DNA of 64,000 nucleotides from Draconibacterium orientale (lineage in GTDB: Bacteria; Bacteroidota; Bacteroidia; Bacteroidales; FEN-979). Shown piece by piece: positions 5,124-55,012 of the stretch. How positions within the stretch are numbered: position 1 is the stretch's first letter; each line of letters opens with the position of its first letter. Location of the stretch: NCBI GenBank assembly GCA_020718225.1, contig DYSO01000001.1, positions 10,968 through 74,967 of the forward strand, given 5' to 3'. Below the pieces are notes generated by a model. It ran no database searches. It saw only the letters and a program-made list of their open reading frames with translations, and was not told the origin of the DNA. The translations under genes and the position numbers were made by a program.

Positions 5124-5172
5124 ATAGCGAATAGTGAATAGTGAATAGTGAATAGTGAATAGTGAATATTGA
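5124..5172. repeat. 7-bp tandem array, 7 copies (ATAGCGA, ATAGTGA x5, ATATTGA)
   Basis: Counted base by base. It starts the nucleotide after the ruvB TAA and ends the nucleotide before the queG ATG. Confidence 0.97.
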
Positions 5173-6117
5173 ATGTCGAAGCTCATCGGAGAACGAGCAT
5201 TGACCGGCCATAAAGCGTTAATCCGTGAAGAAGCCCTGCGCCAGGGTTTTTTGCACTGTGGGTTTGCCCGCGCAGAACCGCCGGAAGAAATCCGTGGGTT
5301 CTATTCCAGCTACCTCGAAAAAAACAGGCAACTTTCCTTATCCTATCTGCAAAGCAACTTTGAAAAAAGGATGGACCCCTCCCTTGTTTTACCGGGGGTT
5401 AAATCCATTATTTCCCTCACCCTGGGTTATTCCGCACAGCCGCCCGTTCCTGAAAAAGATTCTTTTGTCATCGCCAAATATGCCCGTGGCGCCGATTATC
5501 ATGAAATCATGAAAAAAAAGATGGACCGGTTTATTTCATGGCTTAAAGCAGAGTTTGGGAGGGCCCGGATAAAACGGTTTGTCGATTCGGGGGCCATTCC
5601 TGAAAAATTCTGGGCCATGCGTTCCGGGGCCGGATGGCAGGGAAAAAATACCCTGATTATCCATAAGGAGGCGGGTTCCTTTTTTTTTATCGGCATCCTG
5701 CTGACCGACCTGGAACTGGAAGCCGATTCCCCGGCCACCGATCATTGCGGCCACTGTACAGAATGTATCAAAGCCTGTCCTACGGGGGCCCTCAACACGC
5801 CTTACCAGCTTGACATGTCGCGCTGTATTTCATACCACACCATCGAAAATAAAAACGCCATTCCGGAAGATATCATTCGCCATCTCGGCAACCGGATCTA
5901 TGGTTGCGACCTGTGCCAGGACGTTTGTCCCTATAACCGGGCCCCAAAACCAACAATCATTCCCGAATTCCTTCCCTCGCCGGATTTGATGAACATGGGA
6001 AAAACCGAATGGCTCAACCTGTCGGAAAAACAATTTGACCGGCTTTTCGGCCATTCTCCGGTCAAACGGATTGGATACGACCGGTTGATGAGAAATATAA
6101 ATGCCGCTTCGGGGTAA
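5173..6117 (+). CDS. queG: tRNA epoxyqueuosine(34) reductase QueG
   Basis: Two ferredoxin-type clusters, CGHCTECIKACPTGAL and GCDLCQDVCPYN. CISYHTIE is also present and length is ~314 aa. Confidence 0.92.
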   Translation: MSKLIGERALTGHKALIREEALRQGFLHCGFARAEPPEEIRGFYSSYLEKNRQLSLSYLQSNFEKRMDPSLVLPGVKSIISLTLGYSAQPPVPEKDSFVIAKYARGADYHEIMKKKMDRFISWLKAEFGRARIKRFVDSGAIPEKFWAMRSGAGWQGKNTLIIHKEAGSFFFIGILLTDLELEADSPATDHCGHCTECIKACPTGALNTPYQLDMSRCISYHTIENKNAIPEDIIRHLGNRIYGCDLCQDVCPYNRAPKPTIIPEFLPSPDLMNMGKTEWLNLSEKQFDRLFGHSPVKRIGYDRLMRNINAASG

Positions 6118-6146
6118 GGATGATGACTAAACGGTATCCGGCTTTT

Positions 6147-6734
6147 TTACAATGGTCCCTCAGCGGAACCCCAGGCATAGCTCCCCAGCTCAAACCCGGC
6201 AAGAGATAAAACCCTGTCGACAACCGTCATGGCCAGCGCTTCAATGGCAACAGGTTTGCTGTAAAACGAAGGGGATGCCGGGCAGATGATGGCGCCGGCT
6301 TCCGTCAGCAGTTTCATGTTGTTCAGGTGTACCAGGCTGAAAGGAGTTTCGCGGGGGACCAGGATCAGCTTCTTCCGTTCTTTCAGCATCACATCGGCAG
6401 CCCTGGTGAGCAGGTCGGACGAAACCCCGGATGCAATCCGGCCGAGGGTCCCCATGGTACAGGGACAAACAATCATGGTATTGTAACCGGCTGAACCGGA
6501 GGCCATCGGGGCAAAAAAATCGGCAGGGTTGTAAACGGTCATCCAATCGGGATAGGCAATAGAATCCGGATCTTCGTTGAGTTCGTACTTCCAGACTGCT
6601 TTTGCGTTTTCAGATAAAATAATCCCACATGCATCAACCTGATCGTGCACCAGACGCAATTTTTCCAGCAATAACCGCGCATAGAGCGCCCCACTGGCCC
6701 CTGTAACCCCGATAATCATCTTTTGTCCTTTCAT
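6147..6734 (-). CDS. ubiX: flavin prenyltransferase UbiX
   Basis: IIGVTGASGALYA, CPCTMGTLGRIA and LILVPRETP. Length ~190 aa. Start could instead be ATG 6719. Confidence 0.9.
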   Translation of the reverse strand: MKGQKMIIGVTGASGALYARLLLEKLRLVHDQVDACGIILSENAKAVWKYELNEDPDSIAYPDWMTVYNPADFFAPMASGSAGYNTMIVCPCTMGTLGRIASGVSSDLLTRAADVMLKERKKLILVPRETPFSLVHLNNMKLLTEAGAIICPASPSFYSKPVAIEALAMTVVDRVLSLAGFELGSYAWGSAEGPL

Positions 6735-6752
6735 AAACCGGCAGGTTTGTAT

Positions 6753-7379
6753 TTAAAAATCCTGAGGTTTGAAATCCCAGAAAAGCGATAGCGACATGAC
6801 ATTGTTGAACTGGCCCCATTCAAATAAAATTTTACGATAGCCGGGCGGATAGGGAGCGGTTGCATTCCGGATGGAGAGCAGGGAATAGTTGAAGCGGAAA
6901 TTGGCTTTCAGATGGCGGGTGATATATCCCGATATCCCGATTATCCCGCTTAGCGTTAAACCCCTCAGGGGAACTGTGTTGGTTACTTCCAATCCATCCG
7001 ACTCTTCATAGGATCCAAGAAGGATATCTGCCGCCGGGCCGATTTCTGCCGAAAACCTGCGGGCAAAAGTGTATTGATATAAAACCGGTATCTCTAAATA
7101 ATTCAGCCGGAGAAGATAGGTTTGATCTGCCGGGTTTGCCGAATCGGCATTTTTCCGGCTTCCCTTTTGGATATATTCCATTTCCATTTGAAAGGATGAA
7201 TGGGGTGAAATTTTCAGGTTAACATAGCCCCCGGCTAAAAAACCATATTTGTGGTACCCATTCCAATTGTCGCCATCTACCTGGCTCACCAGTCCTCCGG
7301 CAACAATTCCCGCATTAAACTTTTGGGCCAATCCTGCAAAGGGAATGCAAATCAATATCAAAATTGCAATTTTTCTCAT
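6753..7379 (-). CDS. outer-membrane beta-barrel (porin-family/PorT-like) protein
   Basis: Signal peptide MRKIAILILICIPFAGLAQ, alternating hydrophobic beta-strand pattern, and C-terminal aromatic residue (..WDFKPQDF). Start moved to ATG 7379. Confidence 0.6.
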   Translation of the reverse strand: MRKIAILILICIPFAGLAQKFNAGIVAGGLVSQVDGDNWNGYHKYGFLAGGYVNLKISPHSSFQMEMEYIQKGSRKNADSANPADQTYLLRLNYLEIPVLYQYTFARRFSAEIGPAADILLGSYEESDGLEVTNTVPLRGLTLSGIIGISGYITRHLKANFRFNYSLLSIRNATAPYPPGYRKILFEWGQFNNVMSLSLFWDFKPQDF

Positions 7380-7447
7380 CCGGAATTTTTCAATAAAAGT
7401 ATGAAAATCTTCACCACGGTTTGTTTTTTCACGAAGGATTCGTGAAG

Positions 7448-8338
7448 TCATTGCTTTATCACTTTTTTAATGAGCATTTGATCCCCATAAACAAACCTGA
7501 AAAAATAGACCCCACAGCTTCTGTCGCTTAAATCGATCAAGGTCCTGCTACCGGTTACATTGCTCTTCTTTTTGATTTCAATGCCGTAATGATTGTATAT
7601 CGTAAGGTCGTATTCTGGCCACCGGGTTTCAATCTGTATGAATTTGGTGGTCGGATTCGGAAATATTTTTACAATTTCCGGAGATTCTTCAACGATGGCA
7701 ACCGGACTTGTCCGGCACGCAAACTCCTGCACGGTTACAGTTAAAAATTGTACGTTGGTCACCTTGATCCATCCGTAAAAAGTATTATTACCTGGCGTTA
7801 ACAATCGGATGGCAAGGTAATGTCTGGAAGTGTCACCAATAAATCCGTTGTCGGAACAATTATGATGGTAGATCATCCAATTTGTATAGGTAAGATATTG
7901 GGTTTTATTCAACCAGTTTAAATTTTGGTTGATGGTGTCATTTTTCTTAAAAAATTTCACCATTTTCGTAGTGTATATCAACGTAATCCCGTCGTCAGCA
8001 TAGCAACTATCGATATGGCCCAGGGCAACCTGGCAAAGGGTGGTATCCATTATTTTCAAACATGATTCAGACCCACCGGCTCCATTGATCCACTCTCCTC
8101 TTGAATAGAAATAAACATCATCGAAACCGTCACCATTGATGTCAACCCGATAAATGGCAGGAGGCAGCGAATCAGGAGGATGGTTGTACGGCCCTGTTAT
8201 CGTTGTATCAGGATTTATATCAAAAAAATAACATCCTGAATCATGCTGGCCGGCAATAATATACTGAGAATGTGATTTTAAAGCGCTGAAAATTACAAGA
8301 AATATCATACAGTGCAAGATGATGAAAATTTTTCTCAT
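7448..8338 (-). CDS. secreted protein with T9SS C-terminal sorting domain
   Basis: N-terminal signal peptide. The C-terminal ~80 aa (KIFPNPTTKFIQIE...GVYFFRFVYGDQMLIKKVIKQ) resembles the Por/T9SS CTD. Also has an FG-GAP-like DINGDGFDDV. Confidence 0.7.
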   Translation of the reverse strand: MRKIFIILHCMIFLVIFSALKSHSQYIIAGQHDSGCYFFDINPDTTITGPYNHPPDSLPPAIYRVDINGDGFDDVYFYSRGEWINGAGGSESCLKIMDTTLCQVALGHIDSCYADDGITLIYTTKMVKFFKKNDTINQNLNWLNKTQYLTYTNWMIYHHNCSDNGFIGDTSRHYLAIRLLTPGNNTFYGWIKVTNVQFLTVTVQEFACRTSPVAIVEESPEIVKIFPNPTTKFIQIETRWPEYDLTIYNHYGIEIKKKSNVTGSRTLIDLSDRSCGVYFFRFVYGDQMLIKKVIKQ

Positions 8339-10687: not shown

Positions 10688-11662
10688 TCAGGCTATCCTT
10701 TCGGTCGTAAACAGAACCAGTTGTTCCATCGATTTACGATATTCATTATCCGGAAAAGTTTGAAGAAGCCGGAGTGATTTTTGCCGGTATTCCCCCATTT
10801 TCAAGCGGGCATAATCCACTCCTCCCCGGTTTTTGATCTTTTCTATCAATCTGGCTACTGCTTCGGAATCGGAATGTCCGTTTTTAACCGTATGGATAAT
10901 CCTGCGTTTTTCCATAAAATCCGAATGGTTAAGCAGATAGATCAGGGGCAGGGTCATTTTCTGGTCGCGGATATCGGTTCCATTGGGTTTTCCTGTGATG
11001 GCGGTCTGGTCATAATCAAACAGGTCATCCTTAAGCTGAAAAGCGATTCCCACCGCTTCACCAAATTGCCACATGGTCTGGACCATTTCCTGTGAAACCT
11101 TTACGGAAGCTGCGCCACAAGAGCAACAAGAGGCGATGAGCGATGCTGTTTTTTTCCTGATAATCTCAAAATATACCGATTCTTCAATATCGAGCCTGCG
11201 CGCTTTTTCAATCTGGAGAAGTTCTCCTTCACTCATTTCCCGTACAGCGTTGGAGACAATTTTCAACAGGTTGAATTCATCCTGTTCGAGGGCAATAAGG
11301 AGCCCCTGCGAAAGAAGATAATCGCCAACGAGAACGGCTATTTTATTCTTCCACAAGGCATTGAGTGAAAAAAAACCGCGACGTAAATTGGAATCATCCA
11401 CCACATCATCGTGGACCAGCGTCGCGGTGTGGAGGAGTTCAATCAGGGAGGCGGCCCGGTATGTACTTTCATTCACGGTTCCGCACAGGCTGGCCGACAG
11501 GAAGACAAACACCGGGCGTATCTGTTTCCCTTTTCGTTTAATGATATAGCGTGTGATGGTATCCAGCAAAGGGACAGAACTTTTCATTGAATTTCTGAAT
11601 TTCCCTTCAAATGCATCAATGTGGCGCTGAATGGGGGCTTTTATTTCATTTAAAGAGGCCAG
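10688..11662 (-). CDS. ispB: polyprenyl (octaprenyl-type) diphosphate synthase
   Basis: FARM LVHDDVVDD and SARM FQLKDDLFD. The first ATG (11587) removes the conserved N-terminal helix LNEIKAPIQRHIDAFEGKF, which is in frame upstream. I extended to an in-frame CTG at 11662, giving 324 aa. The start codon is uncertain. Confidence 0.8.
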   Translation of the reverse strand: MASLNEIKAPIQRHIDAFEGKFRNSMKSSVPLLDTITRYIIKRKGKQIRPVFVFLSASLCGTVNESTYRAASLIELLHTATLVHDDVVDDSNLRRGFFSLNALWKNKIAVLVGDYLLSQGLLIALEQDEFNLLKIVSNAVREMSEGELLQIEKARRLDIEESVYFEIIRKKTASLIASCCSCGAASVKVSQEMVQTMWQFGEAVGIAFQLKDDLFDYDQTAITGKPNGTDIRDQKMTLPLIYLLNHSDFMEKRRIIHTVKNGHSDSEAVARLIEKIKNRGGVDYARLKMGEYRQKSLRLLQTFPDNEYRKSMEQLVLFTTERIA

Positions 11663-19783: not shown

Positions 19784-20422
19784 ATGATCCATCTCCAAAA
19801 AATGACCTTTAATTCCTTTATGGTAAACACCTATTTGTTGTACGATGAAACCGGCGCATGTATCATCATCGATGCTGCCTGTTACGATGTTGAAGAACAA
19901 CAGGAAGTAAAGGATTTTTTGACAAAACATCACCTGAAACTGGTTCGTAACCTCAATACCCACTGCCATGTTGATCATGTGCTTGGAAACCCTTTTATTG
20001 CCGGTTCATTCCAGGTATTTCCCGAATATCACCAACACTCCCTTCCTTTTTTCAAGACCATCAGGGAGATTGGCTCCTCTTTCGGATACACCATCGACCA
20101 GCAGCCCGAACCTGCCCGTTTCCTGGTAGAGGATGAAACCATTCATTGGGGAAATTCATCTTTAAAAGTTCTTTTTACACCCGGTCATGCCGCCGGGAGC
20201 GTCTGTTTTTATAATGAAACCCAGGGATTTGTTATCACCGGGGATGTGTTGTTTAAAGATACCATCGGACGGACCGACCTTCCTTCGGGTGACTTCAATC
20301 AATTGATGAAAAGTATCAAAACCAAACTTTTTACCTTACCCCCCAATACCATCGTTTATCCGGGACACGGCCCTGAAACACAAATCGGGTATGAGATGGA
20401 GAATAATATGTTTATAAGGTAG
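19784..20422 (+). CDS. MBL-fold metallo-hydrolase (glyoxalase II-like)
   Basis: THCHVDHVLG (HxHxDH), TPGHAAGS and GDVLF..TIGRTDLP. Confidence 0.88.
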   Translation: MIHLQKMTFNSFMVNTYLLYDETGACIIIDAACYDVEEQQEVKDFLTKHHLKLVRNLNTHCHVDHVLGNPFIAGSFQVFPEYHQHSLPFFKTIREIGSSFGYTIDQQPEPARFLVEDETIHWGNSSLKVLFTPGHAAGSVCFYNETQGFVITGDVLFKDTIGRTDLPSGDFNQLMKSIKTKLFTLPPNTIVYPGHGPETQIGYEMENNMFIR

Positions 20423-20529
20423 CGAGGTAGCGAGGTGGCGAGGTGGCGAGGTGGCGAGGTGGCGAGGTGGCGAGGTGGCAAGGTAGCGAGGTGGCGAGGT
20501 GGCGAGGTAGCGAAATAGCGAAATAGCGA
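20418..20529. repeat. 8-bp tandem array, 14 copies (GGTAGCGA/GGTGGCGA, one GGTGGCAA, last two AATAGCGA)
   Basis: Counted base by base. The first unit contains the MBL TAG stop (20420-20422). The array ends 2 nt before ATG 20532. Confidence 0.97.
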
Positions 20530-20531
20530 AT

Positions 20532-21539
20532 ATGATTTCTTCCTTGGTAAAAATTCTTATTATCCGGTTTAGTTCCATTGGGGATATTGTTCTTACCACG
20601 CCTGTGATACGATGCCTGAAATCACAATTGCCCGGATTGGAACTTCACTATCTTACAAAAAAACAATTTCTTCCCATCCTTGAGCCGAATCCGTATATAA
20701 ATAAAGTGTGGGGTTACGATCGTAATTTTCGCGATCTGATTCCCCAATTGAAGTCCCAGGGCTTCGATTACGTTGTTGATCTGCATAAGAATTACCGGTC
20801 GGTTTTTGTTAAGCGCCAACTTCAGGTTGCTTCGGCATCTTTTCCGAAATTGAACCTTCAAAAATGGGTCACTGTCCATTTTAAAATGAATGTGATGCCC
20901 GATATCCATATTGTTGATCGGTATTTTGAGGCAGTTAAACCCCTGGGCATTCAAAATGACGCAGGGGGTCTTGATTACTTCATCCCGGCTGTGGATGAAG
21001 TTTCGCTTGCAGGTTTGCCCGCCACCCATCAAAAAGGGTTTTATGCCATAGTCATCGGAGGAAAACATAACACCAAGATCTTCCCGCCGGAGAAAATTGT
21101 CGAAGTGTGTAAAAAACTCTCACAACCGGTGGTCCTGCTTGGCGGGAATGAGGACCGGGAACGCGGGGAACAAATAGCAGAAAGGGCAGGAACACCGATT
21201 TACAATTCCTGCGGGCTGTACAACATCAGTCAGTCGGCTTCGTTCATCCGCCAGTCCAGGGCCGTACTGACAAACGATACCGGCCTGATGCATATTGCCG
21301 CTGCATTCGGCAAACACATGGTTTCGGTTTGGGGCAATACCATTCCGGCTTTTGGGATGTATCCTTACCTGCCGGAAAAATTCAAAGCAAATTCCATGAT
21401 CGCGGAGGTCAAGGGCCTTTCATGCCGCCCATGCAGCAAATTAGGGTTTAAACAATGTCCTAAAAAGCATTTTCATTGCATGATGCTGATAGATACCGAT
21501 CCGATCGTTGATTTTTTAATGCTTGATAATAAATCGTAA
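20532..21539 (+). CDS. glycosyltransferase family 9 (LPS heptosyltransferase-like)
   Basis: ILIIRFSSIGDIVLTTPVIRCLK, VVLLGG..D and TNDTGLMHIAAAFG are typical GT9 motifs. Confidence 0.88.
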   Translation: MISSLVKILIIRFSSIGDIVLTTPVIRCLKSQLPGLELHYLTKKQFLPILEPNPYINKVWGYDRNFRDLIPQLKSQGFDYVVDLHKNYRSVFVKRQLQVASASFPKLNLQKWVTVHFKMNVMPDIHIVDRYFEAVKPLGIQNDAGGLDYFIPAVDEVSLAGLPATHQKGFYAIVIGGKHNTKIFPPEKIVEVCKKLSQPVVLLGGNEDRERGEQIAERAGTPIYNSCGLYNISQSASFIRQSRAVLTNDTGLMHIAAAFGKHMVSVWGNTIPAFGMYPYLPEKFKANSMIAEVKGLSCRPCSKLGFKQCPKKHFHCMMLIDTDPIVDFLMLDNKS

Positions 21540-21652
21540 ATCGTATATCGTAAATCGTAAATCGTATATCGTAAATCGTATATCGTAAATCGTAAATCGT
21601 ATATCGTATATCGTATATCGTATATCGTAAATCGTAAATCGTAAATCGTAAA
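21534..21652. repeat. 7-bp tandem array, 17 copies (TCGTAAA/TCGTATA)
   Basis: Counted base by base. The first unit contains the GT9 TAA stop (21537-21539). The array ends 4 nt before the TTG start of tatD. Unit order by position 6 is A T A A T A T A A T T T T A A A A. Confidence 0.97.
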
Positions 21653-21656
21653 TCCA

Positions 21657-22430
21657 TTGTTCTTTTCAGATTCACATACCCATCTGTACGCCGAAGCGTT
21701 CGACAACGATCGCGAAAAAATGATGCAACGTGCTGTAAAGCAAAATATTATGCATTTTTTTCTTCCCGCCATTGATTCAACATATCATAACAGGATGCTT
21801 AAGGTTGTGGCAGACTATCCCGATACCTGTTTTCCGATGATGGGGCTGCATCCGACCTCAGTAAAAGAAAACTTTGTCAATGAGTTGGCCATCGTTGAAG
21901 GTTACCTTGCAAACCCGGAACTGAAATTCTATGCCATCGGTGAAGTCGGCATTGACCTTTACTGGGATAAAACCCATGAAGCGGAACAGCGAAAAGCATT
22001 CAACTTCCAGCTTGATCTTGCGGTAAAGTACGACCTTCCGGTGGTGATCCATACACGGAACTCGATGGACATTGCCCTGAACATGGTTGAAGACCGGGAT
22101 GATTCAAGGCTCCGGGGCGTATTTCATTGTTTCAGTGGGAATGTTGAACAAGCAAAACGGGCCATCCGACTGGGATTTATGGTTGGAATTGGTGGCGTGG
22201 TAACCTATAAGAACTCAGGCCTGCAAACTGTGGTTGAAAAAACCGCGCTTGATCACCTGCTGCTCGAGACCGATGCACCCTGGCTGCCTCCGGTTCCATA
22301 CCGCGGCCAGCGGAATGAACCAGCCTACCTTCCGCTCATCGCCCGGAAAATTGCAGAATTAAAAAAAATTTCCATGGAAGAAGTAGCCGAAAGTACTTCA
22401 CGGAATGCAACAGCGTTATTTAAACCATGA
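21657..22430 (+). CDS. tatD: TatD-family metal-dependent hydrolase/DNase
   Basis: FSDSHTHLY, GEVGIDLYW, VIHTR, HCFSG and LLLETDAPW. Only a TTG start is available (in-frame TAA 15 nt upstream). Confidence 0.9.
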   Translation: MFFSDSHTHLYAEAFDNDREKMMQRAVKQNIMHFFLPAIDSTYHNRMLKVVADYPDTCFPMMGLHPTSVKENFVNELAIVEGYLANPELKFYAIGEVGIDLYWDKTHEAEQRKAFNFQLDLAVKYDLPVVIHTRNSMDIALNMVEDRDDSRLRGVFHCFSGNVEQAKRAIRLGFMVGIGGVVTYKNSGLQTVVEKTALDHLLLETDAPWLPPVPYRGQRNEPAYLPLIARKIAELKKISMEEVAESTSRNATALFKP

Positions 22431-22507
22431 TCCTGTCGGACCACTGAACACAGACAAAGTACCAGGGTCCGGTATATATTGGTGTTTTACTGTTAAATTC
22501 GATTTTT

Positions 22508-23536
22508 ATGATTGGACAAACAAATATTTTGGTGATCTATACCGGTGGGACCATCGGCATGGTTCAGGATCCAAAAACGATGGCGCTCCGTCCGTTGAGT
22601 TTCGACATCCTCTATAAGTACCTTCCGGTTCTGGAGAATTTCAACTGCACCATCGATTTTTATACGTTTGAGCCCCTGCTGGATTCATCGAACATGAACC
22701 CTTCGTTTTACATCCATCTGGCTACTGTGATCGAAGAAAAATACGAGGATTACGATGGTTTTGTCATTCTTCACGGGTCGGATACCATGGCCTATACGGC
22801 ATCGGCTTTGAGTTTTATGCTGGAGAACCTGAACAAACCTGTAATCTTTACGGGATCTCAGTTACCCATTGGAATGGTGCGGACTGACGGCCGTGAAAAT
22901 TTTATTAATTCCATTGAAATTGCCACCGCGAAGGAGTACGATACCCCGGTGGTGCCTGAAGTTGCCATTTGTTTTGAAAACAAACTTTACAGGGGGAACC
23001 GCACCAGCAAATTCAACGCCGAACATTTCGGCGCTTTCGTTTCGGTAAATTATCCCCTGTTGGCCGAAGTCGGGGTTCATATCAAATACAATCAAAATCT
23101 GATATTGAAACCTAATTTCAAGAAATTGAAGGCCCTCAAGACCCTCGATGAAAATATCACAATCCTGAAGTTGTTTCCCGGCATATCATCTCAGGCCGTT
23201 GAGGCCATACTCCATACAAAAGATTTGAAAGCCGTTATCCTTGAAACTTTTGGATCTGGAAATGCCCCGACCATTCCCTGGTTCATTGATCATCTTCAGG
23301 ATGCCATAACACGCGGAATTATTATTTATAATGTTACACAATGCAAAGGCGGAACGGTGGAGATGGGAAAATATGAAACCAGCGCCGGACTGAATAAAAT
23401 AGGTGTTATCGGAGGTTATGACATCACCACCGAATCGGCAGTAACCAAGCTGATGTACCTGCTGGGGTCCGGTTACTCCCAGGAAAGTATAAAACAATTG
23501 CTGCAAACCTCCCTACGGGGCGAAATGACTGTTTGA
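22508..23536 (+). CDS. ansA: L-asparaginase, type I
   Basis: ILVIYTGGTIGM (active-site Thr), VILHGSDTMAYTASAL and FGSGN. Confidence 0.92.
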   Translation: MIGQTNILVIYTGGTIGMVQDPKTMALRPLSFDILYKYLPVLENFNCTIDFYTFEPLLDSSNMNPSFYIHLATVIEEKYEDYDGFVILHGSDTMAYTASALSFMLENLNKPVIFTGSQLPIGMVRTDGRENFINSIEIATAKEYDTPVVPEVAICFENKLYRGNRTSKFNAEHFGAFVSVNYPLLAEVGVHIKYNQNLILKPNFKKLKALKTLDENITILKLFPGISSQAVEAILHTKDLKAVILETFGSGNAPTIPWFIDHLQDAITRGIIIYNVTQCKGGTVEMGKYETSAGLNKIGVIGGYDITTESAVTKLMYLLGSGYSQESIKQLLQTSLRGEMTV

Positions 23537-23553
23537 GAATCCCGAACTTTTTA

Positions 23554-23561
23554 TATCTTTG
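23554..23561 (+). promoter_or_regulatory. TAnnTTTG -7 box upstream of tRNA-Ser
   Basis: tatctttg. The heptamer array begins 5 nt downstream and the tRNA 66 nt downstream. Confidence 0.4.
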
Positions 23562-23565
23562 CACA

Positions 23566-23621
23566 TCGTAAAACGTAAATCGTAAATCGTAAATCGTAAA
23601 TCGTAAATCGTAAATCGTAAA
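23566..23621. repeat. 7-bp tandem array, 8 copies (TCGTAAA, one ACGTAAA)
   Basis: Counted base by base. Same unit and orientation as 21534-21652. Ends 5 nt before tRNA-Ser. Confidence 0.97.
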
Positions 23622-23626
23622 TTCCT

Positions 23627-23714
23627 GGAGAGGTGTCCGAGTGGTCGAAGGAGCACGCCTGGAAAGTGTGTGTACGCCAAAAGTGTACCCTGGGTTCGAA
23701 TCCCAGTCTCTCCG
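23627..23714 (+). tRNA. tRNA-Ser (anticodon GGA)
   Basis: GGAGAGGTGTCCGAGTGGTCGAAGGAGCACGCCTGGAAAGTGTGTGTACGCCAAAAGTGTACCCTGGGTTCGAATCCCAGTCTCTCCG. Anticodon loop CTGGAAA, long variable arm (GTAC..GTAC) typical of class II tRNA, T-arm CTGGG/TTCGAAT/CCCAG. Confidence 0.9.
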
Positions 23715-23737
23715 CTCAGAATGAATGCTGTTTAACG

Positions 23738-23780
23738 AAAACCACTGAAAACATGGATGTTTTGGTGGTTTTTTGTTTTT
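23738..23780 (+). terminator. rho-independent terminator after tRNA-Ser
   Basis: Imperfect hairpin aaaaccactgaaaacat..atgttttggtggtttt followed by ttttgttttt. Confidence 0.55.
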
Positions 23781-24055
23781 ATTAAAAGTAACATAAAGCA
23801 TTCAAAAGTAAACTTTCAGTGGCTTATTCGGTGGACTGAATTATTTTCCCTCCAAGTCCACCGATTTAGCATATTATGCACTGATTTACACTACTTTACA
23901 TTTCATTCTTTTGCTCTTGGTATCTAATTTAGTTAACCCGGCAAATTTTCCACAGGCAGTAAGGTCAATAATTCTGAAAGCGTTCTGTTTTTTTTCTGAC
24001 GGTTTTTCTGTCGATGTTAGCCTCTCCTTAATCAGGTTGATGACCGATCAAAAAA

Positions 24056-25926: not shown

Positions 25927-26760
25927 ATGAAAGAAAGAATCCTGATCATTGGGGCAACCGGCATGCTGGCCAGGCCTGTTGCACGCAAACTGAAAGATGA
26001 CGGCAATATCGTCAGGCTTTTCTCCCGTTCCGTATCGGAAAAGGAGGAAAAGGAGGGATACGAGATCTCCAAAGGGGATTTTTTCAACCCCTCCGATCTT
26101 GAAAAAGCCATGAAAGATTGCCGCCATGTTCACACCAACCTGGCTAAGGTAGATGAAGGGGTCGTCATGAAGGGGATCGTGGAAGCGGCGAAAAAGGCAG
26201 GCATCCAGACCCTCTCCTGCATCTCCGGGGCCTCCGTATGTGAAGAAAACCGGTGGTTTTACGGCACCGAAAGGAAATACCAGGCCGAACAGGCGGTGAT
26301 CCAAAGTGGTATCCCCTATATGATTTTCCGCCCATCCTGGTTCTTTGAATCACTTGAAATGATGGTCAGGGGAGGCAAGGCCATGATGATCGGTAAACAA
26401 CCTCATCCTTACCGCTGGGTGGCCTCCGACGACTACGGCCGGATGGTGGCAACCGCCTATGCTAAACCCGAAGCCCGGAACCGGATCTTTTACGTTCTTG
26501 GGCCGGAGTATCATAAAATGCGGGACCTTCTGGTCAATTATGTGAAGGCTGTACACCCGGAGATAAAAAAGGTATCGGATGTGCCGTTGTGGATGATGAA
26601 GCTGATCGGGCTGGTGTCGGGAAAAATGGATATCAAAGGGGTTGCCGATCTTTACGGATATTTCGAGAAGGCTCGTGAACAGGGAGATCCGGCCATGACC
26701 AATGAGTTGCTTGGGAAACCCGAAATCACTTTTGAACAGTGGGTGAAGGGAAAGAATTAA
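25927..26760 (+). CDS. NAD(P)H-binding NmrA/SDR-family protein
   Basis: Rossmann motif ILIIGATGMLARPVARKL. Length ~277 aa. Start taken at ATG 25927. Confidence 0.8.
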   Translation: MKERILIIGATGMLARPVARKLKDDGNIVRLFSRSVSEKEEKEGYEISKGDFFNPSDLEKAMKDCRHVHTNLAKVDEGVVMKGIVEAAKKAGIQTLSCISGASVCEENRWFYGTERKYQAEQAVIQSGIPYMIFRPSWFFESLEMMVRGGKAMMIGKQPHPYRWVASDDYGRMVATAYAKPEARNRIFYVLGPEYHKMRDLLVNYVKAVHPEIKKVSDVPLWMMKLIGLVSGKMDIKGVADLYGYFEKAREQGDPAMTNELLGKPEITFEQWVKGKN

Positions 26761-26770
26761 AAATTTAAAA

Positions 26771-26784
26771 ATTACGAATTACGA
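26771..26784. repeat. 7-bp unit ATTACGA x2 abutting the AraC start codon
   Basis: attacgaattacga is immediately followed by ATG 26785. The unit is close to the reverse complement of TCGTAAA/TCGTAAT. Confidence 0.6.
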
Positions 26785-37177: not shown

Positions 37178-37459
37178 AATATTGAGCCCACTCCGAAAAG
37201 TATTTTTTTTACGACATCGACACAATCATTACGCTATTGCTTGGGACATCGGGCCCCATCCCCCCGGCCCCCTTCCCCAAAAAGGGAAGGGGGCGGGTTG
37301 TGCTAATAATTCATAACGCTGTTAATCAAAGTGTTAGATTGATTAGAACACACCTCCCCTCCATTTTTGGGGAGGGGCCGGGGGTGGGGTACAATAAAGG
37401 ACGATATGATAAATAGCATACCATTATTTGTTTTGCCTTTTCGGAGGGGACTCAATATT
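37178..37459. mobile_element. 282-bp nested imperfect palindrome (MITE-like element)
   Basis: Outer inverted repeat aatattgagcccactccgaaaag (37178-37200) versus cttttcggaggggactcaatatt (37437-37459), 21/23 complementary. Inner GC-rich inverted repeat ccccatccccccggcccc (37254-37271) versus ggggccgggggtgggg (37374-37389). Local hairpins at 37268-37293 and 37353-37375. All share the same symmetry centre near 37320. Confidence 0.5.
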
Positions 37460-42392: not shown

Positions 42393-42532
42393 ATACCGGG
42401 TGGCGATAGGCGATAGTCCTTCATCTGCGTGAACCCGGATTGGAGGTCGATCCTGAACTGTTCATAAAAACATAGCTGTTATCTGATGAATTATTCGTTT
42501 TAAAAAGCACTTTTGATGCGTAAAAGAATTTT

Positions 42533-45406
42533 ATGTACGATATCTACCTGCTCAACGATCTTAATCCCGGCAAACTTCGCAGGACATTTGATAAAACCCT
42601 GGAAGAACTCGCCTCGGGAAATTTTACGGCGGCTGAAGTAAAGAAAATGCCCAACACGGGCTATTACAGGGCAAAGCTTGACCAGGAAAACCGGTTGCTG
42701 TTCCGCTTCGGCAGGCATAATGACCAGATTTGTCTTCTGGTACTGGAACTGATCCTCAACCACGATTATGCAAAATCGAGGTTTCTCAGAGGCTCTTCAG
42801 TTGACGAATCGAACCTTCAGCCTTTTAATAACGAGGCTGCCTTACCAACCGAAGATCTGGTGAGCCTCCCTTATATCAATAAAAAATATCCCAAATTCCA
42901 CCTGCTCGATAAGTTCCTTTCGTTCGACGACATGCAGGAGGAAATTCTCCAGTATCCCCTGCCCCAGATCATCATCGGATCGGCAGGAAGCGGAAAAACG
43001 GCCCTGACCCTCGAAAAGATCAAGACACTTAAAGGCCGCATCCTTTATGTGACCCTTTCATCCTACCTGGCCGAAAATTCCTCCCGGTGGTATTATTCCC
43101 ACAATTTTGAGGACGAACAGCAGGAGATTGACTTTCTCTCATACCGCGAATTCATTGAAACCATCCGTATTCCCGAAGGAAAGGAAATGGATTTCAGGAT
43201 CTTCCTGCGGTGGTTTTGGGGATTCAGACAATCCACAGGCCTTAAGGATTCCCATAAAGTGTATGAAGAATTCAGGGGAGTGATCACCGGGATGGATATT
43301 TCCAAGGAGCATCTTTCATATGAAGATTACATGTCACTCGGAGTTAAACAATCCATTTTCCTTTCTTCCGAACGTGAAACCGTATATGCCTTGTTTACGA
43401 AATACCTGCTATTCCTGAAAGAAGAAGGGTATTATGATATCAACATGTATTCACATGGTTTGCTGGAGCATAGCAGTGCGGTATATGATTACATCATTGT
43501 GGATGAGGTACAGGATTTTACCAATATACAGCTTTTTTTAATCCTGAAAACCCTGGTCAAACCTGTAAATTTCATCCTTTGCGGCGACGCGAACCAGGTT
43601 GTCCACCCCAATTTCTTCTCTTGGTCCCATCTTAAGACCATGTTCTACCGAAATGATCTCAGGGGAGATGAAATCCGCATACTTCATGCCAATTACCGGA
43701 ATACACAAGTAGTGTCGGACCTTGCAAACCGTTTGCTCAATCTCAAGATCGCCCGTTTCGGTTCCATTGATAAAGAAAGTAATTATCTGGTGAGGACTGT
43801 TTCCCGGAATGCAGGCGAAATGGTGTTTCTCGAAGAAAAGCATAAAACGGTTGCGGACCTTGCCCGGAAAACAGGGAAATCGGTGAATTACGCGGTGCTC
43901 GTATTGCGTAACGAGGACAAACAAAGGGCTGCTAACCTCTTTCCATCTCCCCTGCTCTTCTCGGTACAAGAATCGAAGGGGCTTGAGTACGAAAATATCA
44001 TCCTCTGCAATTTCATCTCCGATAATGCCTCCGAATTCAATGAAATATGTGATGGCGTTAGCGCTGAGGCCGTTCATGGCGAGGAACCTATATATTCGAG
44101 GGGCAGAGATAAGACCGATAAATCGCTCGATGCCTATAAGTTTTATATCAACTCCCTGTACGTGGCCATTACAAGGGCCGTGAAAAATGTCTATATCGTG
44201 GAAAAAACCAGGGGACATAAACTCATCAGCCTGCTTGGAATTTCTGAGGAGGTGAGGGAAAAGGTCATTAAAGAGGATGTTTCTTCGGCGGATGACTGGA
44301 AGCGGGAGGCCCGGCGACTTGAAATGATGGGCAAAGCCGAACAGGCTGAAGCCATCCGTAAGAATATCCTGGTAACGGTCAAACCCTACTGGGAACCCAT
44401 GACCATTGAGAAATATATAACTGCAAAAGAAGAGGCGCTCAATCCCGAACACTTCAATAAGAAAGCCAAGGACAAGTTGTTTGATTTTGCCCTGATCCAC
44501 AATCAGGTCCTGATTCTTGAAAAACTTGCCGGGTTGAATTACCACAAAGCCGAAAAACCCGAAGATGAGCGCAGCTCCCTCTTCCGCAAGTATTACCAGT
44601 ATTACAGGGACGATAACCTGAAGATGGTGGTGCAGGAAATCAATAAATTCGGGATTGATTACCGGGATGTCCACAACTTTACCCCCTTGCATGCCGCGGT
44701 ATTCTCAGGGGCTGTTAAGATCTTCACCGCCCTGCTGCAAAACGGGGCCAATCCGGAATTACAGGATACTTTTTTCAAAACCCCTTTACAGATTGCCCTT
44801 CAACAGGCTTTTACCAACCCCGATTACGCTAAAAACAAACTTGGGAAAATTTACCCTATGCTCCTTACCGCTTCACTGGCTATTCAGGTTAGCGGACAAC
44901 TTATCAAAATCGATCCCCATAAAGCCGAATTCCTGATGGTGAACCTGTTTATAGCGGTTCAGTCTTCTATCATGCAGACAAAACATTATTTCCAGGCCCA
45001 GGGGTTGCTGGTCGATGACCTGCTTACTCATATTACGAATTTTCCCGAAACGGTTTTGCCCGCCTACCGCAAGAAGCGGGAATACTGGCTGGCCCTTCTG
45101 TCCAAACACGAAAGCGGGAGCAATAATGTTTACTGCAAAAAACTTTTCTGCCGTGTGCAGAGGGGGGCATACGTCCTTAACTCCTTGATGCTCATTCGTT
45201 TCGGTGAAACCTGGATCCCTGTGCATGAAATCATTAACAGCCAGGGCATCAGTAGTTACGATATAAAGACCCATTCGATGGAAAAGCAACAGAAAAGAAT
45301 GGAGGAAAGCAAACGCCGGTGGGAAAAAGAACAGAAGAAACGTGAGAAAGAGGCCAGGGAACGCGAGAAATGGGAACGCAACAGGTACGGAGGATATCAG
45401 AGATAA
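42533..45406 (+). CDS. SF1 (UvrD/Rep-like) helicase with RelE/ParE-like N-terminal domain, ankyrin repeats and a Lys/Glu-rich tail
   Basis: Helicase motifs IIGSAGSGKTALT (I), IIVDEVQDF (II), ILCGDANQVV (III), LHANYRNT (IV), SVQESKGLEYENIIL and LYVAITRAVKNVYIV (VI). N-terminal GYYRAKLDQENRLLFRF...ICLLVLELILNHDY resembles the RelE/ParE C-terminal pattern. Ankyrin TPLHAAVFSGAVKIFTALLQNGANPELQD..KTPLQIAL. Tail EKQQKRMEESKRRWEKEQKKREKEAREREKWERNRY. Confidence 0.8.
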   Translation: MYDIYLLNDLNPGKLRRTFDKTLEELASGNFTAAEVKKMPNTGYYRAKLDQENRLLFRFGRHNDQICLLVLELILNHDYAKSRFLRGSSVDESNLQPFNNEAALPTEDLVSLPYINKKYPKFHLLDKFLSFDDMQEEILQYPLPQIIIGSAGSGKTALTLEKIKTLKGRILYVTLSSYLAENSSRWYYSHNFEDEQQEIDFLSYREFIETIRIPEGKEMDFRIFLRWFWGFRQSTGLKDSHKVYEEFRGVITGMDISKEHLSYEDYMSLGVKQSIFLSSERETVYALFTKYLLFLKEEGYYDINMYSHGLLEHSSAVYDYIIVDEVQDFTNIQLFLILKTLVKPVNFILCGDANQVVHPNFFSWSHLKTMFYRNDLRGDEIRILHANYRNTQVVSDLANRLLNLKIARFGSIDKESNYLVRTVSRNAGEMVFLEEKHKTVADLARKTGKSVNYAVLVLRNEDKQRAANLFPSPLLFSVQESKGLEYENIILCNFISDNASEFNEICDGVSAEAVHGEEPIYSRGRDKTDKSLDAYKFYINSLYVAITRAVKNVYIVEKTRGHKLISLLGISEEVREKVIKEDVSSADDWKREARRLEMMGKAEQAEAIRKNILVTVKPYWEPMTIEKYITAKEEALNPEHFNKKAKDKLFDFALIHNQVLILEKLAGLNYHKAEKPEDERSSLFRKYYQYYRDDNLKMVVQEINKFGIDYRDVHNFTPLHAAVFSGAVKIFTALLQNGANPELQDTFFKTPLQIALQQAFTNPDYAKNKLGKIYPMLLTASLAIQVSGQLIKIDPHKAEFLMVNLFIAVQSSIMQTKHYFQAQGLLVDDLLTHITNFPETVLPAYRKKREYWLALLSKHESGSNNVYCKKLFCRVQRGAYVLNSLMLIRFGETWIPVHEIINSQGISSYDIKTHSMEKQQKRMEESKRRWEKEQKKREKEAREREKWERNRYGGYQR

Positions 45407-47755: not shown

Positions 47756-48413
47756 ATGAAAAACCATGCGGGTCATGCAGGGTTTATCATTGCCGCAACA
47801 ACCGCTTTCGCCGGTTTTTTACTCCTGGGATGGCTGGATGCCAATGTCAAGCAAAAGATCAGGGCTGCCGAAACCCGCATAGACATCAACAAACAGGAAA
47901 TCGGAGCAATCAAAGGCGATTTTTCGGTATTTGATCCCGGTGCTGAATTTTATAACGAGAACCATCCTTACACGAATGACCTTGACATTTTCGGCAAAGG
48001 TTCTCTGTTTCAATGCCTGAACAAATCCACAACCATATTCGGTAAAAAACGGCTGGCGGAGTATTTGAACAATGCTTACCAGCTCAGGAACGAAATACCG
48101 GGACGGCAGGAAGCCATCAGGGAACGCTCCGGGAAAATTGATTTCAGGCAGGAGTTTCAACGTATCTTTTTTAAACAATCCGCGGATAAGGATGATCTTC
48201 CGGCGATTGGCAGCTTTTTCATTCAACCACCCGGAATTTGTCTTCCCGGAATTACATACAGGAGAATATCTGATTAAGGCTAAGAAGATCGGGCATCCGT
48301 TGATACCTGTCGAAATCTGTGTGACCAATGACTCCCTGGTCAGGGCTGAAATACAACGTGGTTGGACTATTTTGAATGATTCAAAACACAGGATGCAGGA
48401 TGAGAAGCAGTGA
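47756..48413 (+). pseudogene. MutS-family (membrane-anchored MutS-related) gene remnant
   Basis: A TM helix, then HPYTNDLDIFGKGSLFQCLNKSTTIFGKKRLAEYL (MutS core-domain pattern). A second frame gives AKKIGHPLIPVEICVTND (the segment just before the ATPase), followed by a stop. The middle and the ATPase domain are missing. Confidence 0.6.
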
Positions 48414-52495: not shown

Positions 52496-52527
52496 AATGC
52501 CCGGTTTTTCAGTAAAGGGGAAATTTG

Positions 52528-52535: not shown

Positions 52536-52576
52536 CCACGATTTAAGGTATAAAGATACAAAACATCGACAACCCC

Positions 52577-53158
52577 ATGCAGATTGAAAAAAATAATCCG
52601 GTTGACCGGCTGGGATGGATTGAAGTCATTTGCGGATCGATGTTTTCAGGTAAAACCGAAGAACTTATCCGGCGCCTCAAACGGGCACGGATTGCCCGCC
52701 AGAAAGTGGAGATTTTTAAACCCGGGATTGATACCCGTTACGATGAACAAAATGTGGTATCGCACGATGAGAATTACATTCCGTCAACCCCGGTACAATC
52801 GGCATCCCAGATTCTTTTATTGACCAACGATGTGAACGTGGTTGGTATTGATGAGGCCCAGTTTTTCGACAACGAATTGCCCGCTGTTTGCAACACCCTG
52901 GCAAGCAACGGGATCAGAGTCATTGTTGCAGGCCTCGACATGGATTATCTCGGGAAGCCTTTTGGCCCGATGCCAGCATTGATGTCCATAGCCGAAGATG
53001 TTACAAAAGTCCACGCAATTTGTATGCAATGCGGCGATCTGGCCCAATATACCTACCGGATGGTCAAAGACGACCACCTCGTAATGCTGGGTGAAGCCGA
53101 ATCGTATGAACCACTATGCCGAAAGTGTTACCAGGAAAAAATGAAAAATCAGGGCTGA
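52577..53158 (+). CDS. tdk: thymidine kinase
   Basis: [22 protein letters not shown] and the zinc ribbon CMQCG...CRKC. Confidence 0.95.
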
Positions 53159-53238
53159 TAAACCACCACGAAATTGGTTTTATCCATCCATTGCAAAGGC
53201 TTCAAACCGGCTGTAGAAAAACAGATCATTTTTTTTCT

Positions 53239-53246
53239 TACTTTTG
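53239..53246 (+). promoter_or_regulatory. TAnnTTTG -7 box upstream of the cyclophilin gene
   Basis: tacttttg lies 20 nt upstream of ATG 53267. Confidence 0.4.
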
Positions 53247-53266
53247 TTCCATAAAAATCCATCGCT

Positions 53267-53917
53267 ATGAAAAGATTCGTATTTGCACTATTGGCTGCCG
53301 TTTTTATCTTTCATTTTTCATTAATGTCTCAACCCAAAACCCAACAAAAAGTGGTAAAATTTGTAATCCATACCGATTTAGGTGACATGAAGGGTATTTT
53401 GTACAACGAAACCCCAAAGCACCGCGATAATTTCGTTAAGCTTGTCAATTCCGGTTTTTATAACGGCCTGTTGTTCCACCGTGTGATCAGCGGATTTATG
53501 ATTCAGGGCGGCGACCCCGATTCAAAAAATGCCAAACCCGGACAACTTCTCGGTTCGGGCGGCCCTGGATACACCGTACCGGCAGAATTCAACAAAGAAT
53601 TTATTCATAAAAAAGGGGCGCTGTCCGCTGCCCGTCAGTCTGATCAGGAAAATCCGGCCAAAGCTTCTTCGGGTTCCCAATTTTATGTTGTTCAGGGGAA
53701 AAAGATACCTGCCTCCCAACTTGGGGCAAATTATTCAGCCGAACAGAAAAAAAAATATGAAACCATCGGGGGAACGCCCTTTCTTGATGGACAATACACT
53801 GTTTTTGGAGAAATTACCGAAGGGCTTGATGTCATTGATAAAATTGCCGTTGTTCAAAAGGACAGTTACGACCGGCCTATAACCGATATCAAAATGACCG
53901 TGAAAATTGTTAAATAG
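53267..53917 (+). CDS. peptidyl-prolyl cis-trans isomerase, cyclophilin type (secreted)
   Basis: Signal peptide, then FHRVISGFMIQGGDP, GSQFYV and TVFGEITEGLDVIDKI. Confidence 0.93.
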   Translation: MKRFVFALLAAVFIFHFSLMSQPKTQQKVVKFVIHTDLGDMKGILYNETPKHRDNFVKLVNSGFYNGLLFHRVISGFMIQGGDPDSKNAKPGQLLGSGGPGYTVPAEFNKEFIHKKGALSAARQSDQENPAKASSGSQFYVVQGKKIPASQLGANYSAEQKKKYETIGGTPFLDGQYTVFGEITEGLDVIDKIAVVQKDSYDRPITDIKMTVKIVK

Positions 53918-53941
53918 AATAACACTTTTTGCGCCGGAAAA

Positions 53942-54961
53942 ATGATCGAAAAGATCCATCATCTTCTTAAAGAAATCAGCGAAGTCACTGCCCACAACCG
54001 GGAGGAAGTGGAACAGCTCCGGCTGAAATACCTGAGTAAAAGAGGGTTGGTTTCTGTTTTATTCGACGATTTCCGGTCGGTCCCTGCCGAAAACAAACGC
54101 CAAGTCGGACAACAACTGAATGAATTGAAAAACCGTGTCCAGGAGAAAATCGATTCTTTAAAAGCCACATTCGAAACAACGGATGAAAAACCGCCCCAGC
54201 CTTCGGATCTTACCCGTCCTGTTTCCGGGGTTCCCGGCACACGTCATCCGCTGTCGATTGTACGAAACCAGATTATCGATATTTTCGGCCGGATCGGTTA
54301 TTCGGTAACCGTTGGACCGGAAATTGAGGATGACTGGCATAATTTTTCGGCCTTGAATTTCCCCCCGGAACACCCCGCACGCGACATGCAGGATACTTTT
54401 TTTATTGCCAGGGATCCCGAAATCCTTTTACGTACCCATACCTCTTCGGTTCAAATACGGACAATGGAGCAAAACCAACCCCCCATCCGGATGATTTTCC
54501 CGGGGATGGTATTCCGTAATGAAGCAATTTCGGCCCGTGCCCATTGTATTTTCCATCAGGTGGAAGGTCTCTACATTGATAAAGATGTTTCGTTTGCCGA
54601 CCTGAAGCAAACGCTGATGTACTTTGCAAAAGAGATGTTTGGCGAAAAGACAAAAATCCGCCTGCGCCCCTCTTATTTTCCTTTTACCGAACCATCGGGC
54701 GAAATGGATGTAAGTTGCAATATTTGTGGCGGGGTTGGTTGCAACATCTGTAAACACACCGGTTGGGTTGAAATATTAGGCTGCGGGATGGTTGATCCCA
54801 GTGTGTTGGAAAATTGCGGTATCGACAGTAAAATTTACACCGGTTTTGCTTTTGGGATGGGGATTGAACGGATCACCATGTTGAAATACCAAATCAGGGA
54901 CTTGCGGTTGTTTTTTGAAAACGACGTGCGGTTTCTAAAACAATTTACTGGGGCCCTGTAA
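53942..54961 (+). CDS. pheS: phenylalanine--tRNA ligase alpha subunit
   Basis: HPARDMQDTFF, FPGMVFRNE (motif 2) and GFAFGMGIERI (motif 3). Confidence 0.96.
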   Translation: MIEKIHHLLKEISEVTAHNREEVEQLRLKYLSKRGLVSVLFDDFRSVPAENKRQVGQQLNELKNRVQEKIDSLKATFETTDEKPPQPSDLTRPVSGVPGTRHPLSIVRNQIIDIFGRIGYSVTVGPEIEDDWHNFSALNFPPEHPARDMQDTFFIARDPEILLRTHTSSVQIRTMEQNQPPIRMIFPGMVFRNEAISARAHCIFHQVEGLYIDKDVSFADLKQTLMYFAKEMFGEKTKIRLRPSYFPFTEPSGEMDVSCNICGGVGCNICKHTGWVEILGCGMVDPSVLENCGIDSKIYTGFAFGMGIERITMLKYQIRDLRLFFENDVRFLKQFTGAL

Positions 54962-55012
54962 TTTCAACCCTTTCCCCCTTCACACAGAGGAAAAAATAGC
55001 GAGAAGCGATAA

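Follow-up and report, generated by a model that had tools for sequence, protein, structure and literature searches.

In the 64,000-nucleotide stretch of the Draconibacterium orientale contig DYSO01000001.1 (assembly GCA_020718225.1) analysed here and called the window in the following, we found four long tandem arrays of 7- or 8-nucleotide (nt) units, all of them lying outside coding sequence. They are probably hypermutable slipped-strand simple-sequence repeats of the long-unit (heptamer and octamer) class that survive in unconstrained spacers, and we saw no sign of a sequence-specific function or of mobility. The arrays are real, well delimited and ordinary in kind, and this kind of array has already been described in bacteria. 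Our analysis covered the 64-kb window and fetched loci of up to 21 kb.

All four arrays were delimited with Tandem Repeats Finder (TRF) and by reading the sequence. Array 1 (5124..5172, + strand) consists of seven heptamers, namely ATAGCGA, five copies of ATAGTGA and ATATTGA, and was reported by TRF at 5123-5174 with period 7, 7.4 copies and 95% matches. Array 2 (20418..20531, +) is built from 14 octamers, GGTRGCGA x12 followed by AATAGCGA x2, and ends with a partial unit (TRF: 20417-20530, period 8, about 14 copies); its G content is 53% and it contains GG runs. Seventeen heptamers of the type TCGTAAA or TCGTATA form array 3 (21534..21654, +; TRF: 21530-21654, period 7, 17.9 copies), and eight TCGTAAA units form array 4 (23566..23622, +; TRF: 23565-23622, period 7, 8.3 copies), which lies in the 5' leader of a tRNA-Ser precursor identified with ARAGORN. 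Variant units are clustered in blocks, for example TCGTATA x4 and then TCGTAAA x4. Two unit families with two long loci each are present within 64 kb, and both recur at other spacers in relatives.

The spacers concerned are very short. Array 1 occupies the entire distance between ruvB (4101-5123, +, stop codon 5121-5123) and queG (5173-6117, +, ATG at 5173), with no base left over on either side. Arrays 2 to 4 fill spacers of a block at 19784..23536 (+), whose genes, like ruvB and queG, were assigned with Pfam and encode a metallo-beta-lactamase-fold protein (MBL, 19784-20422, +), a family-9 glycosyltransferase or heptosyltransferase (GT9, 20532-21539, +), TatD (21657-22430, +) and an asparaginase (22508-23536, +). 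Array 2 has the stop codon of the MBL gene (TAG, 20420-20422) within its opening unit and ends 1–2 nt 5' of the GT9 ATG at 20532. Array 3 likewise opens with a unit that includes the GT9 stop codon (TAA, 21537-21539), and it ends 4 nt 5' of the TTG start of tatD at 21657; this TTG is the sole available start, with an in-frame TAA 12 nt upstream. Array 4 follows the asparaginase gene and ends 4 nt 5' of the tRNA-Ser (GGA) at 23627..23715 (+; ARAGORN and Rfam RF00005). In three of the four cases the array thus reaches from the stop codon of one gene to the start codon of the next. According to their source names the nearest homologues of the flanking genes belong to Bacteroidales or Bacteroidota.

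As arrays 2 and 3 begin with a unit that contains the stop codon, the repeated unit appears to be a copy of the stop-containing segment, and this duplication would explain why the sense strand of both arrays is so rich in stops. Every array contains stops in all three forward frames and none on the reverse strand, and it is this stop-free reverse strand that gives rise to the spurious minus-strand open reading frames (ORFs) at 20336-20599, 21473-21772 and 23424-23801. An earlier note on this DNA had described the same pattern; its further claim that all forward frames close within three units fails in arrays 2 and 3, where a forward frame stays open for up to 31 and 27 codons, respectively. 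The note had also placed the repeats at stop and start codons and outside any credible coding sequence, which Pfam, ARAGORN and the sequence itself bear out for the four long arrays. Being 'confined to gene boundaries' is correct as a description of this placement, yet no targeting is required for it, since frame-shifting units are only tolerated in spacers, and an array touches a stop or start because the spacers are so short.

Array 4 lies between a promoter candidate and the 5' end of the tRNA-Ser. The candidate (TTTG-N18-TAtcTTTG, 23532..23561, +) was found by pattern matching, overlaps the asparaginase stop and sits directly 5' of the array. Its form, TTTG-N18-TATCTTTG, fits the Bacteroidetes -33/-7 promoter consensus that Bayley and colleagues are said to have established in 2000. 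Two matches to the full consensus in the window are chance level, and the candidate is credible only because the motif is kept in all relatives that retain the asparaginase–tRNA-Ser neighbourhood. A phase-variation switch inside a coding sequence or promoter was rejected, as the arrays lie after a stop and before a start, and array 4 comes after the -7 box of this candidate.

Arrays of five or more copies did not occur at all in shuffled sequence. Exact tandem duplications of 7 or 8 nt are found at about nine distinct intergenic places of the window, where local shuffles led to an expectation of about 0.7, and duplications of period 4–5 are at shuffle expectation. The single period-9 array of the window sits in coding sequence, and outside the arrays the window shows no enrichment of solitary units. 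From the seven loci that had been proposed originally, the four long arrays are robust by TRF. Two others are only two-copy duplications and weak when taken alone: ATTACGA x2 (26771..26784, +), which reads TCGTAAT on the opposite strand with one mismatch to TCGTAAA, adjoins the ATG of an AraC-family gene, and GGCGATA x2.1 (42402..42416, +) lies about 10 nt 3' of the stop of a C1-like peptidase gene. The seventh, AATAGCGA GAAGCGA at 54995-55009, gave no tandem repeat by TRF or in the exact-duplication scan and is to be dropped. An exact intergenic duplication, TTAAAAAT x2 (26757-26773), overlaps the ATTACGA pair, and further intergenic two-copy duplications were seen at 11588-11603 (TGAATTTC x2) and 48389-48402 (CAGGATG x2). 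It is plausible that these short two-copy loci are proto-arrays, none of which counts singly.

The arrays are also found outside the assembly analysed here. GCA_973786475.1, a second assembly of the same species, shows 99.97% identity over 21 kb and equal copy numbers in the arrays; none of the seven differences between it and the window falls into an array. Two further sequencing runs yielded Logan contigs that have an end within arrays 1-4, the one of SRR17737360 beginning within array 1. Logan contig L003 is otherwise identical to the window and lacks exactly one 8-nt GGTGGCGA unit of array 2. As the arrays recur with the same boundaries in independent assemblies, the concern that they could be assembly artefacts no longer holds.

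To compare the same spacers in relatives we collected about 60 related loci through GT9 and QueG protein searches, exact look-ups and one metagenome scan (numbered with the prefix L). The order MBL-GT9-tatD-asparaginase-tRNA-Ser is retained down to about 53% GT9 identity; L122 and L170 show about 95–97% DNA identity to the window and L123 about 82–84%. Between MBL and GT9 the window has 14 units and L122 has 10, whereas L123 has 12 with a different variant mix including AATAGTGA. At larger distance L129 (71% GT9 identity) has 4 units, L136 (64%) nine AATGGMGA and L172 three GTGAAATR at this position, and L126, L133, L134, L135, L146 and L149 are without an array. In L126 this spacer measures 19 nt and the array-initial GGTA follows the same stop position. 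Between GT9 and tatD the 17 units of the window correspond to 5 in L122, 4 in L170 and none in L123; more distant loci carry three degenerate units plus RGTGACA x9 (L129), TTCRTTA x8 (L126) or other units (L145, L146). The seven units between ruvB and queG correspond to four (ATAGCGA ATGGCGA ATAGCGA ATATTGA) in L384-387, and L389 has a 12-nt spacer and no array. In front of tRNA-Ser, where the window has eight units, L129 shows four TCGTAAA-like ones, L126 a 13-nt leader with no array, and L122, L170 and L123 about 125 nt of other degenerate heptamers with an inverted copy, the leader length among relatives ranging from 13 to about 125 nt.

Copy numbers therefore differ by whole units between strains at the assembly level (14/10/12 for array 2, 17/5/4 for array 3 and 7/4 for array 1), with boundaries and edge units being kept and interiors differing by whole units. 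In other lineages the same spacers have exchanged the unit itself, being occupied by TTCRTTA x8, RGTGACA x9, ACAGGCGG x9 or CGTGAATAW x5, or by no array. The arrays are thus present in related genomes, as the same spacers carry them in several relatives, with other units or none in others. The earlier division of the units into an (A/G)GCGA and a TCGTAAA family stands and is strengthened by relatives, namely by the four-unit ruvB–queG array of the sister lineage and by AATAGTGA and AATGGCGA units in MBL–GT9 arrays.

Some relatives show arrangements of arrays that differ from those of the window, where no inverted partner of any of the four arrays was found. The tRNA-Ser leaders of L122 (3735-3855), L123 (9075-9198) and L170 (2315-2435) contain AGTGAAN heptamers and then an inverted copy (GTTCACT TTTCACT TTTCATT), and judged from their sequence the two would pair into a long hairpin within the pre-tRNA. 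Pairs of a direct and an inverted array were also observed in L136 (MBL–GT9), in L137 and between tatD and asparaginase in L129, as well as in L004, L008, L060, L061, L077 and L078, which stem from a scan for TCGTAWA described below. In L146 CGTGAATAW x5 lies upstream of tatD (4986-5034) and its reverse complement (ATATTCACG...) downstream (5870-5970), so that an inverted array pair surrounds this one gene. The junction of array 3 and tatD, AAATCCATTG, is kept in L122 and L170, and the array-less 82% relative starts tatD with ATG. In L123 the GT9 call (6001-7080, protein P0002) comprises 359 instead of about 335 amino acids, its start having been placed inside the octamer array.

A density census, made with one TRF setting and crude ORF calls, resulted in 9.4 arrays per 100 kb for the window (4 of 40 spacers with an array) and 37 per 100 kb for the syntenic clade (20/50 spacers), the latter value being inflated because all its loci are centred on the same array-prone region. 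Relatives with a GT9 identity of at most 52% showed 2.7 arrays per 100 kb and an array in 1 of 57 spacers. High array density is a trait restricted to the clade.

The unit TCGTAAA itself is more widespread. An exact scan for (TCGTAWA)x3 in species-representative genomes revealed at least 118 stretches, and the following figures hold among the matches listed. About 49 belong to Bacteroidota, 25 to Verrucomicrobiota (many from Akkermansia), 14 to Acidobacteriota and 12 to Chloroflexota, with few in Pseudomonadota and almost none in Bacillota and Actinomycetota. Akkermansia metagenome assemblies from rabbit, sheep and human carry TCGTAAA arrays (L007, L039, L052, L060, L079, L095, L096, L105 and L110), some of them several per contig, and the heptamer therefore recurs in a well-studied gut genus. 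From about 315 arrays in the 118 loci 242 have period 7, 17 period 8 and 12 period 9, and the same 8-kb stretches contain about 110 further heptamer arrays with about 100 different units. Around 85% of the arrays lie outside ORFs, although ORFs make up about 87% of the DNA, and for the TCGTAAA arrays of Bacteroidota the count is 43 of 44.

In the window all four arrays are in sense orientation and shortly upstream of starts. Among the matches listed, the 129 TCGTAAA arrays show no orientation bias with respect to co-directional genes (29 sense, 30 antisense), and this is equally flat within Bacteroidota, Verrucomicrobiota, Acidobacteriota and Chloroflexota. A weak asymmetry was seen in the small numbers of convergent spacers, where TCGTAAA favours the top strand (17:7), and of divergent ones, where it favours the bottom strand (13:3) (L004-L121, same matches). 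The median distance of these arrays is about 11 nt to stop codons and about 45–50 nt to facing starts, and this closeness to stops rather than starts is more in keeping with tolerance than with targeting. In viral contigs, a different collection, exact triplets amounted to 41 for TCGTAAA, 34 for ATAGTGA and 107 for TAACTGA in comparison to 15 and 5 for two composition-matched permuted controls, which hints at some units being favoured. A literature search for TCGTAAA and its rotations gave incidental primer matches only.

Arrays of this type have several described counterparts. Long simple-sequence repeats (LSSR) with units of 5–11 nt were surveyed by Mrazek, Guo and Shah (2007), who, as their work is cited in two later papers, found heptamers to be the most abundant class in prokaryotes and proposed polymerase slippage as their origin (via PMC4679880, PMC4692102). 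As far as these citing papers report the survey, the arrays described here resemble LSSR in having 7–8-nt units and a length beyond chance, in the dominance of heptamers, in the near-exclusively intergenic location and in the sporadic, lineage-specific distribution, as well as in the slippage origin. Unit length, length beyond chance, exclusion from coding sequence and whole-unit variation between strains, by which LSSR are recognised, were all found here. They differ in that this uncultured Bacteroidales clade is outside that survey, that TCGTAAA and ATRGCGA/GGTRGCGA are new units and that the arrays often fill the whole spacer from stop to start.

MacGregor (2015) reported intergenic arrays of TAACTGA and other heptamers, often just 5' of starts, in Beggiatoaceae, Cyanobacteria and five Bacteroidetes, with arrays missing in close relatives of the same gene order and contigs breaking at arrays (PMC4679880). 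A Bacteroidota counterpart, of which the earlier note was not aware, had therefore already been published. Both systems share intergenic heptamers, which in the window lie near starts, one unit family at several loci of a genome, array-less syntenic relatives, contig breaks, Bacteroidetes hosts and other heptamers in the same spacers. In contrast, the repeats of BOGUAY (Orange Guaymas 'Maribeggiatoa') are strongly 'forward' to the start, whereas the TCGTAAA arrays are unbiased among the matches listed. The window contains no tandem dimers of TAACTGA, and its four single copies compare with about ten expected. Between the same genes of two Xanthomonas species Rehm (2015) described arrays that vary in length and sequence and sometimes occur as inverted pairs (PMC4692102). 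The GGGAATC/GGGGAYT arrays of Xanthomonas and Nostoc are comparable to ours in their same-gene spacers, in length and sequence variation, in some inverted pairs and in the absence of a functional theme; unlike ours they are G3-4 quadruplex formers, as here only array 2 is G-rich and has GG runs only.

The oldest comparison, which the earlier note had made, is that with the short tandemly repeated repetitive (STRR) sequences of cyanobacteria. Mazel and colleagues reportedly described these in 1990 for heterocystous strains as tandem heptanucleotides of few families at many intergenic sites, without a function being assigned. The comparison is a fair one: tandem heptamers (arrays 1, 3 and 4), an intergenic location, one family at several loci and hypervariability are common to both, a dispersal of few families over many sites may be, with two families of two long loci each in 64 kb, and the differences are the cyanobacterial phylum, the octamer of array 2 and the STRR units CCCCAGT, TTGGTCA and CAACAGT, none of which forms a tandem dimer in the window.

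From these observations we infer slippage, co-transcription, near-neutrality and, if there is any, an effect on expression in the following way. The starting point would be the duplication of 7 or 8 nt within an unconstrained spacer, and in arrays 2 and 3 the duplicated nucleotides would include the stop codon of the preceding gene. Whole units would then be gained or lost, and the interior homogenised, by slipped-strand mispairing at replication or by unequal recombination, and the edge units beside the stop and start codons would remain fixed. Since neither 7 nor 8 is divisible by three and such arrays shift the frame, they would be purged from coding sequence and persist in spacers, and in a compact genome with short spacers they would come to run from stop to start. 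They would be transcribed either as intercistronic RNA (ruvB-queG and MBL-GT9-tatD) or as the 5' leader of the pre-tRNA-Ser. In Bacteroidota translation begins on open leaders with no Shine-Dalgarno sequence involved, and for this reason an unstructured array before a start codon would be tolerated and do little harm. Its main effect, if any, may be an altered length of spacer or leader, which could grade downstream expression. A translation effect cannot account for array 4, because RNase P cuts the 5' leader off the pre-tRNA; from the leader length of 13 to about 125 nt among relatives we argue that the content of this array is unconstrained.

Several points weigh against simple slippage in neutral spacers. 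The same unit families are found at the same spacers at 64–71% GT9 identity (AATAGCGA-type units in L129 and L136, TCGTAAA-type units in L129), and such persistence is long and not well explained if the repeats are purely neutral and exposed to the deletion bias of bacteria. One unit family also occurs at two or three spacers of one genome, for which simple local slippage is insufficient, and the excess of TCGTAAA, ATAGTGA and TAACTGA triplets in viral contigs, measured against two controls, hints at favoured units. Furthermore, the copy-number variation is one between assembled strains, and short-read copy numbers may be inexact for arrays of 112–125 nt. Persistence and the occurrence of families at several spacers keep a role as length-tunable spacers open and, less likely, one as arrays of binding sites.

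Selected expression rheostats, in which array length would tune translation or mRNA stability of the downstream gene and a change in copy number would be a heritable and reversible variation, are possible by analogy and, in our judgement, unlikely. The model is the (ATCTTTC)n repeat of Haemophilus influenzae hmw1A and hmw2A, a proven rheostat in front of a surface adhesin gene, which acts in the 5' untranslated region of hmw1A via a long hairpin cut by RNase III, expression being inversely proportional to the heptamer number (PMC12721329). Both cases have a heptamer array of variable copy number in the leader between promoter and gene. The obvious target here would be the GT9 lipopolysaccharide heptosyltransferase, a classic type of phase-variable gene that is flanked by arrays 2 and 3, and such a role would agree with arrays lying directly before start codons in leaders or intercistronic spacers, with copy numbers differing among near-identical strains, with the kept start-codon junction next to a variable interior and with arrays persisting at the same spacers over deep divergence while units change. 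However, the remaining flanked genes (ruvB, queG, tatD) are housekeeping genes, array 4 precedes a tRNA with no translation to tune, several relatives are array-less at the same spacers, and earlier surveys saw no functional pattern among flanked genes. Moreover, the hmw mechanism requires a hairpin that the window arrays do not have: RNA folds of the four arrays with flanks are weaker than those of dinucleotide shuffles (z +1.9, +0.8, +0.6 and +1.1), the centroids are almost empty and no hmw-type leader hairpin was seen. The same folds, a terminator scan that found no terminator-like site in the four arrays and an Rfam search of the window matching only two tRNAs ruled out a structured RNA or terminator as a candidate. 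Structural elements in a wider sense, be it terminators, processing hairpins, G-quadruplexes in array 2 or bent DNA affecting transcription, are highly improbable, even if the GG-N1-GG-N3 spacing of array 2 would permit two-tetrad quadruplexes, G-rich heptamer arrays have been discussed as quadruplex formers in Xanthomonas and Nostoc (PMC4692102) and arrays with an inverted copy, as would-be long hairpins, exist in the tRNA leaders of L122 and L123, in L136, in L137 and in several loci of the TCGTAWA scan. The window arrays lack inverted partners, and with units reaching from G-rich to A/T-rich no one structure suits them all.

That the arrays serve as binding sites of a regulator that recognises their sequence in RNA or DNA is very unlikely. 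For TAACTGA repeats MacGregor had proposed binding by ribosomal protein S1, cold-shock or CsrA-like proteins (PMC4679880), and the sense orientation of the four window arrays, the same unit family at several loci in one genome and its relatives, the presence of TCGTAAA arrays in many phyla and the higher frequency of this unit than its two control permutations in viral contigs would be in line with it. Against it, the 129 TCGTAAA arrays among the matches listed have no orientation bias in Bacteroidota or overall, orthologous spacers hold unrelated units in sister lineages, single unit copies are not enriched outside arrays and array 4 is located in a pre-tRNA leader. Scarcely credible, and largely refuted already, is the notion that the arrays belong to a miniature transposable element or arose during assembly. 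Short-read contigs do break within arrays and a distinct miniature inverted-repeat element is present in the clade, but the array boundaries are identical in independent NCBI, ENA, JGI and Logan assemblies and strain differences are whole-unit indels within these fixed boundaries. A mobile element as candidate was rejected since 123 oriented TCGTAAA arrays among the matches listed have neither terminal inverted repeats nor shared or conserved flanks, the information in their 30-nt flanks being about zero beyond partial units. Rather improbable, finally, is a combined explanation for the clade and perhaps other array-rich phyla, according to which a lineage-specific process duplicates 7–8-nt segments, arrays of changing sequence are kept at the same intercistronic spacers and leaders for long evolutionary periods as sequence-independent, length-tunable devices that set relative expression in operons, and the favoured units (TCGTAAA, ATRGCGA, TAACTGA) reflect a shared mechanistic preference. 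Maintenance would then result from the usefulness of an unstructured spacer of tunable length where initiation takes place without a Shine-Dalgarno sequence.

Whether or not they have an effect, arrays of this type are of practical importance, as they break short-read assemblies at gene boundaries and cause spurious reverse-strand ORFs and over-extended gene calls. Annotators of Bacteroidales metagenome assemblies should mask them. The four spacers, which can be compared over a range from 97% identity in DNA to about 50% in protein, also provide a comparative series for birth, expansion, unit change and death of long-unit microsatellites. The preference for heptamers and the occurrence of one unit at several sites of a genome have been standing questions since STRR sequences were described. 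If it were true that copy number tunes operon expression in a phylum without Shine-Dalgarno-led initiation, this would represent a new regulatory layer.

Some minor features were observed along with the arrays. The miniature inverted-repeat element mentioned above is located at 37182-37455 of the window and comprises about 274 nt, with 19-nt terminal inverted repeats (TTGAGCCCACTCCGAAAAG and CTTTTCGGAGGGGACTCAA) that enclose G/C-rich hairpins (GGGCCCCATCCCCCCGGCCCCCTTCCCC...GGGAAGGGGGCGGG). Spacers of relatives hold copies that share its ends (L129 5894-6028, L388 2342-2552 and L018 7763), the one of L129 sitting inside an array of RRATTTGA units. Directly 3' of tRNA-Ser the 82% relatives have a tyrosine integrase gene with the domains Arm-DNA-bind_5, Phage_int_SAM_5 and Phage_integrase (L123 9526-10779, L124 9526-10752), which is absent in the window and suggests an integrated mobile element at the tRNA-Ser of L123 and L124. 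Unrelated to the arrays, the region 42533-45406 of the window encodes a protein of 957 amino acids that combines weak UvrD/PhoH-like helicase matches with ankyrin repeats, an unusual domain mix.

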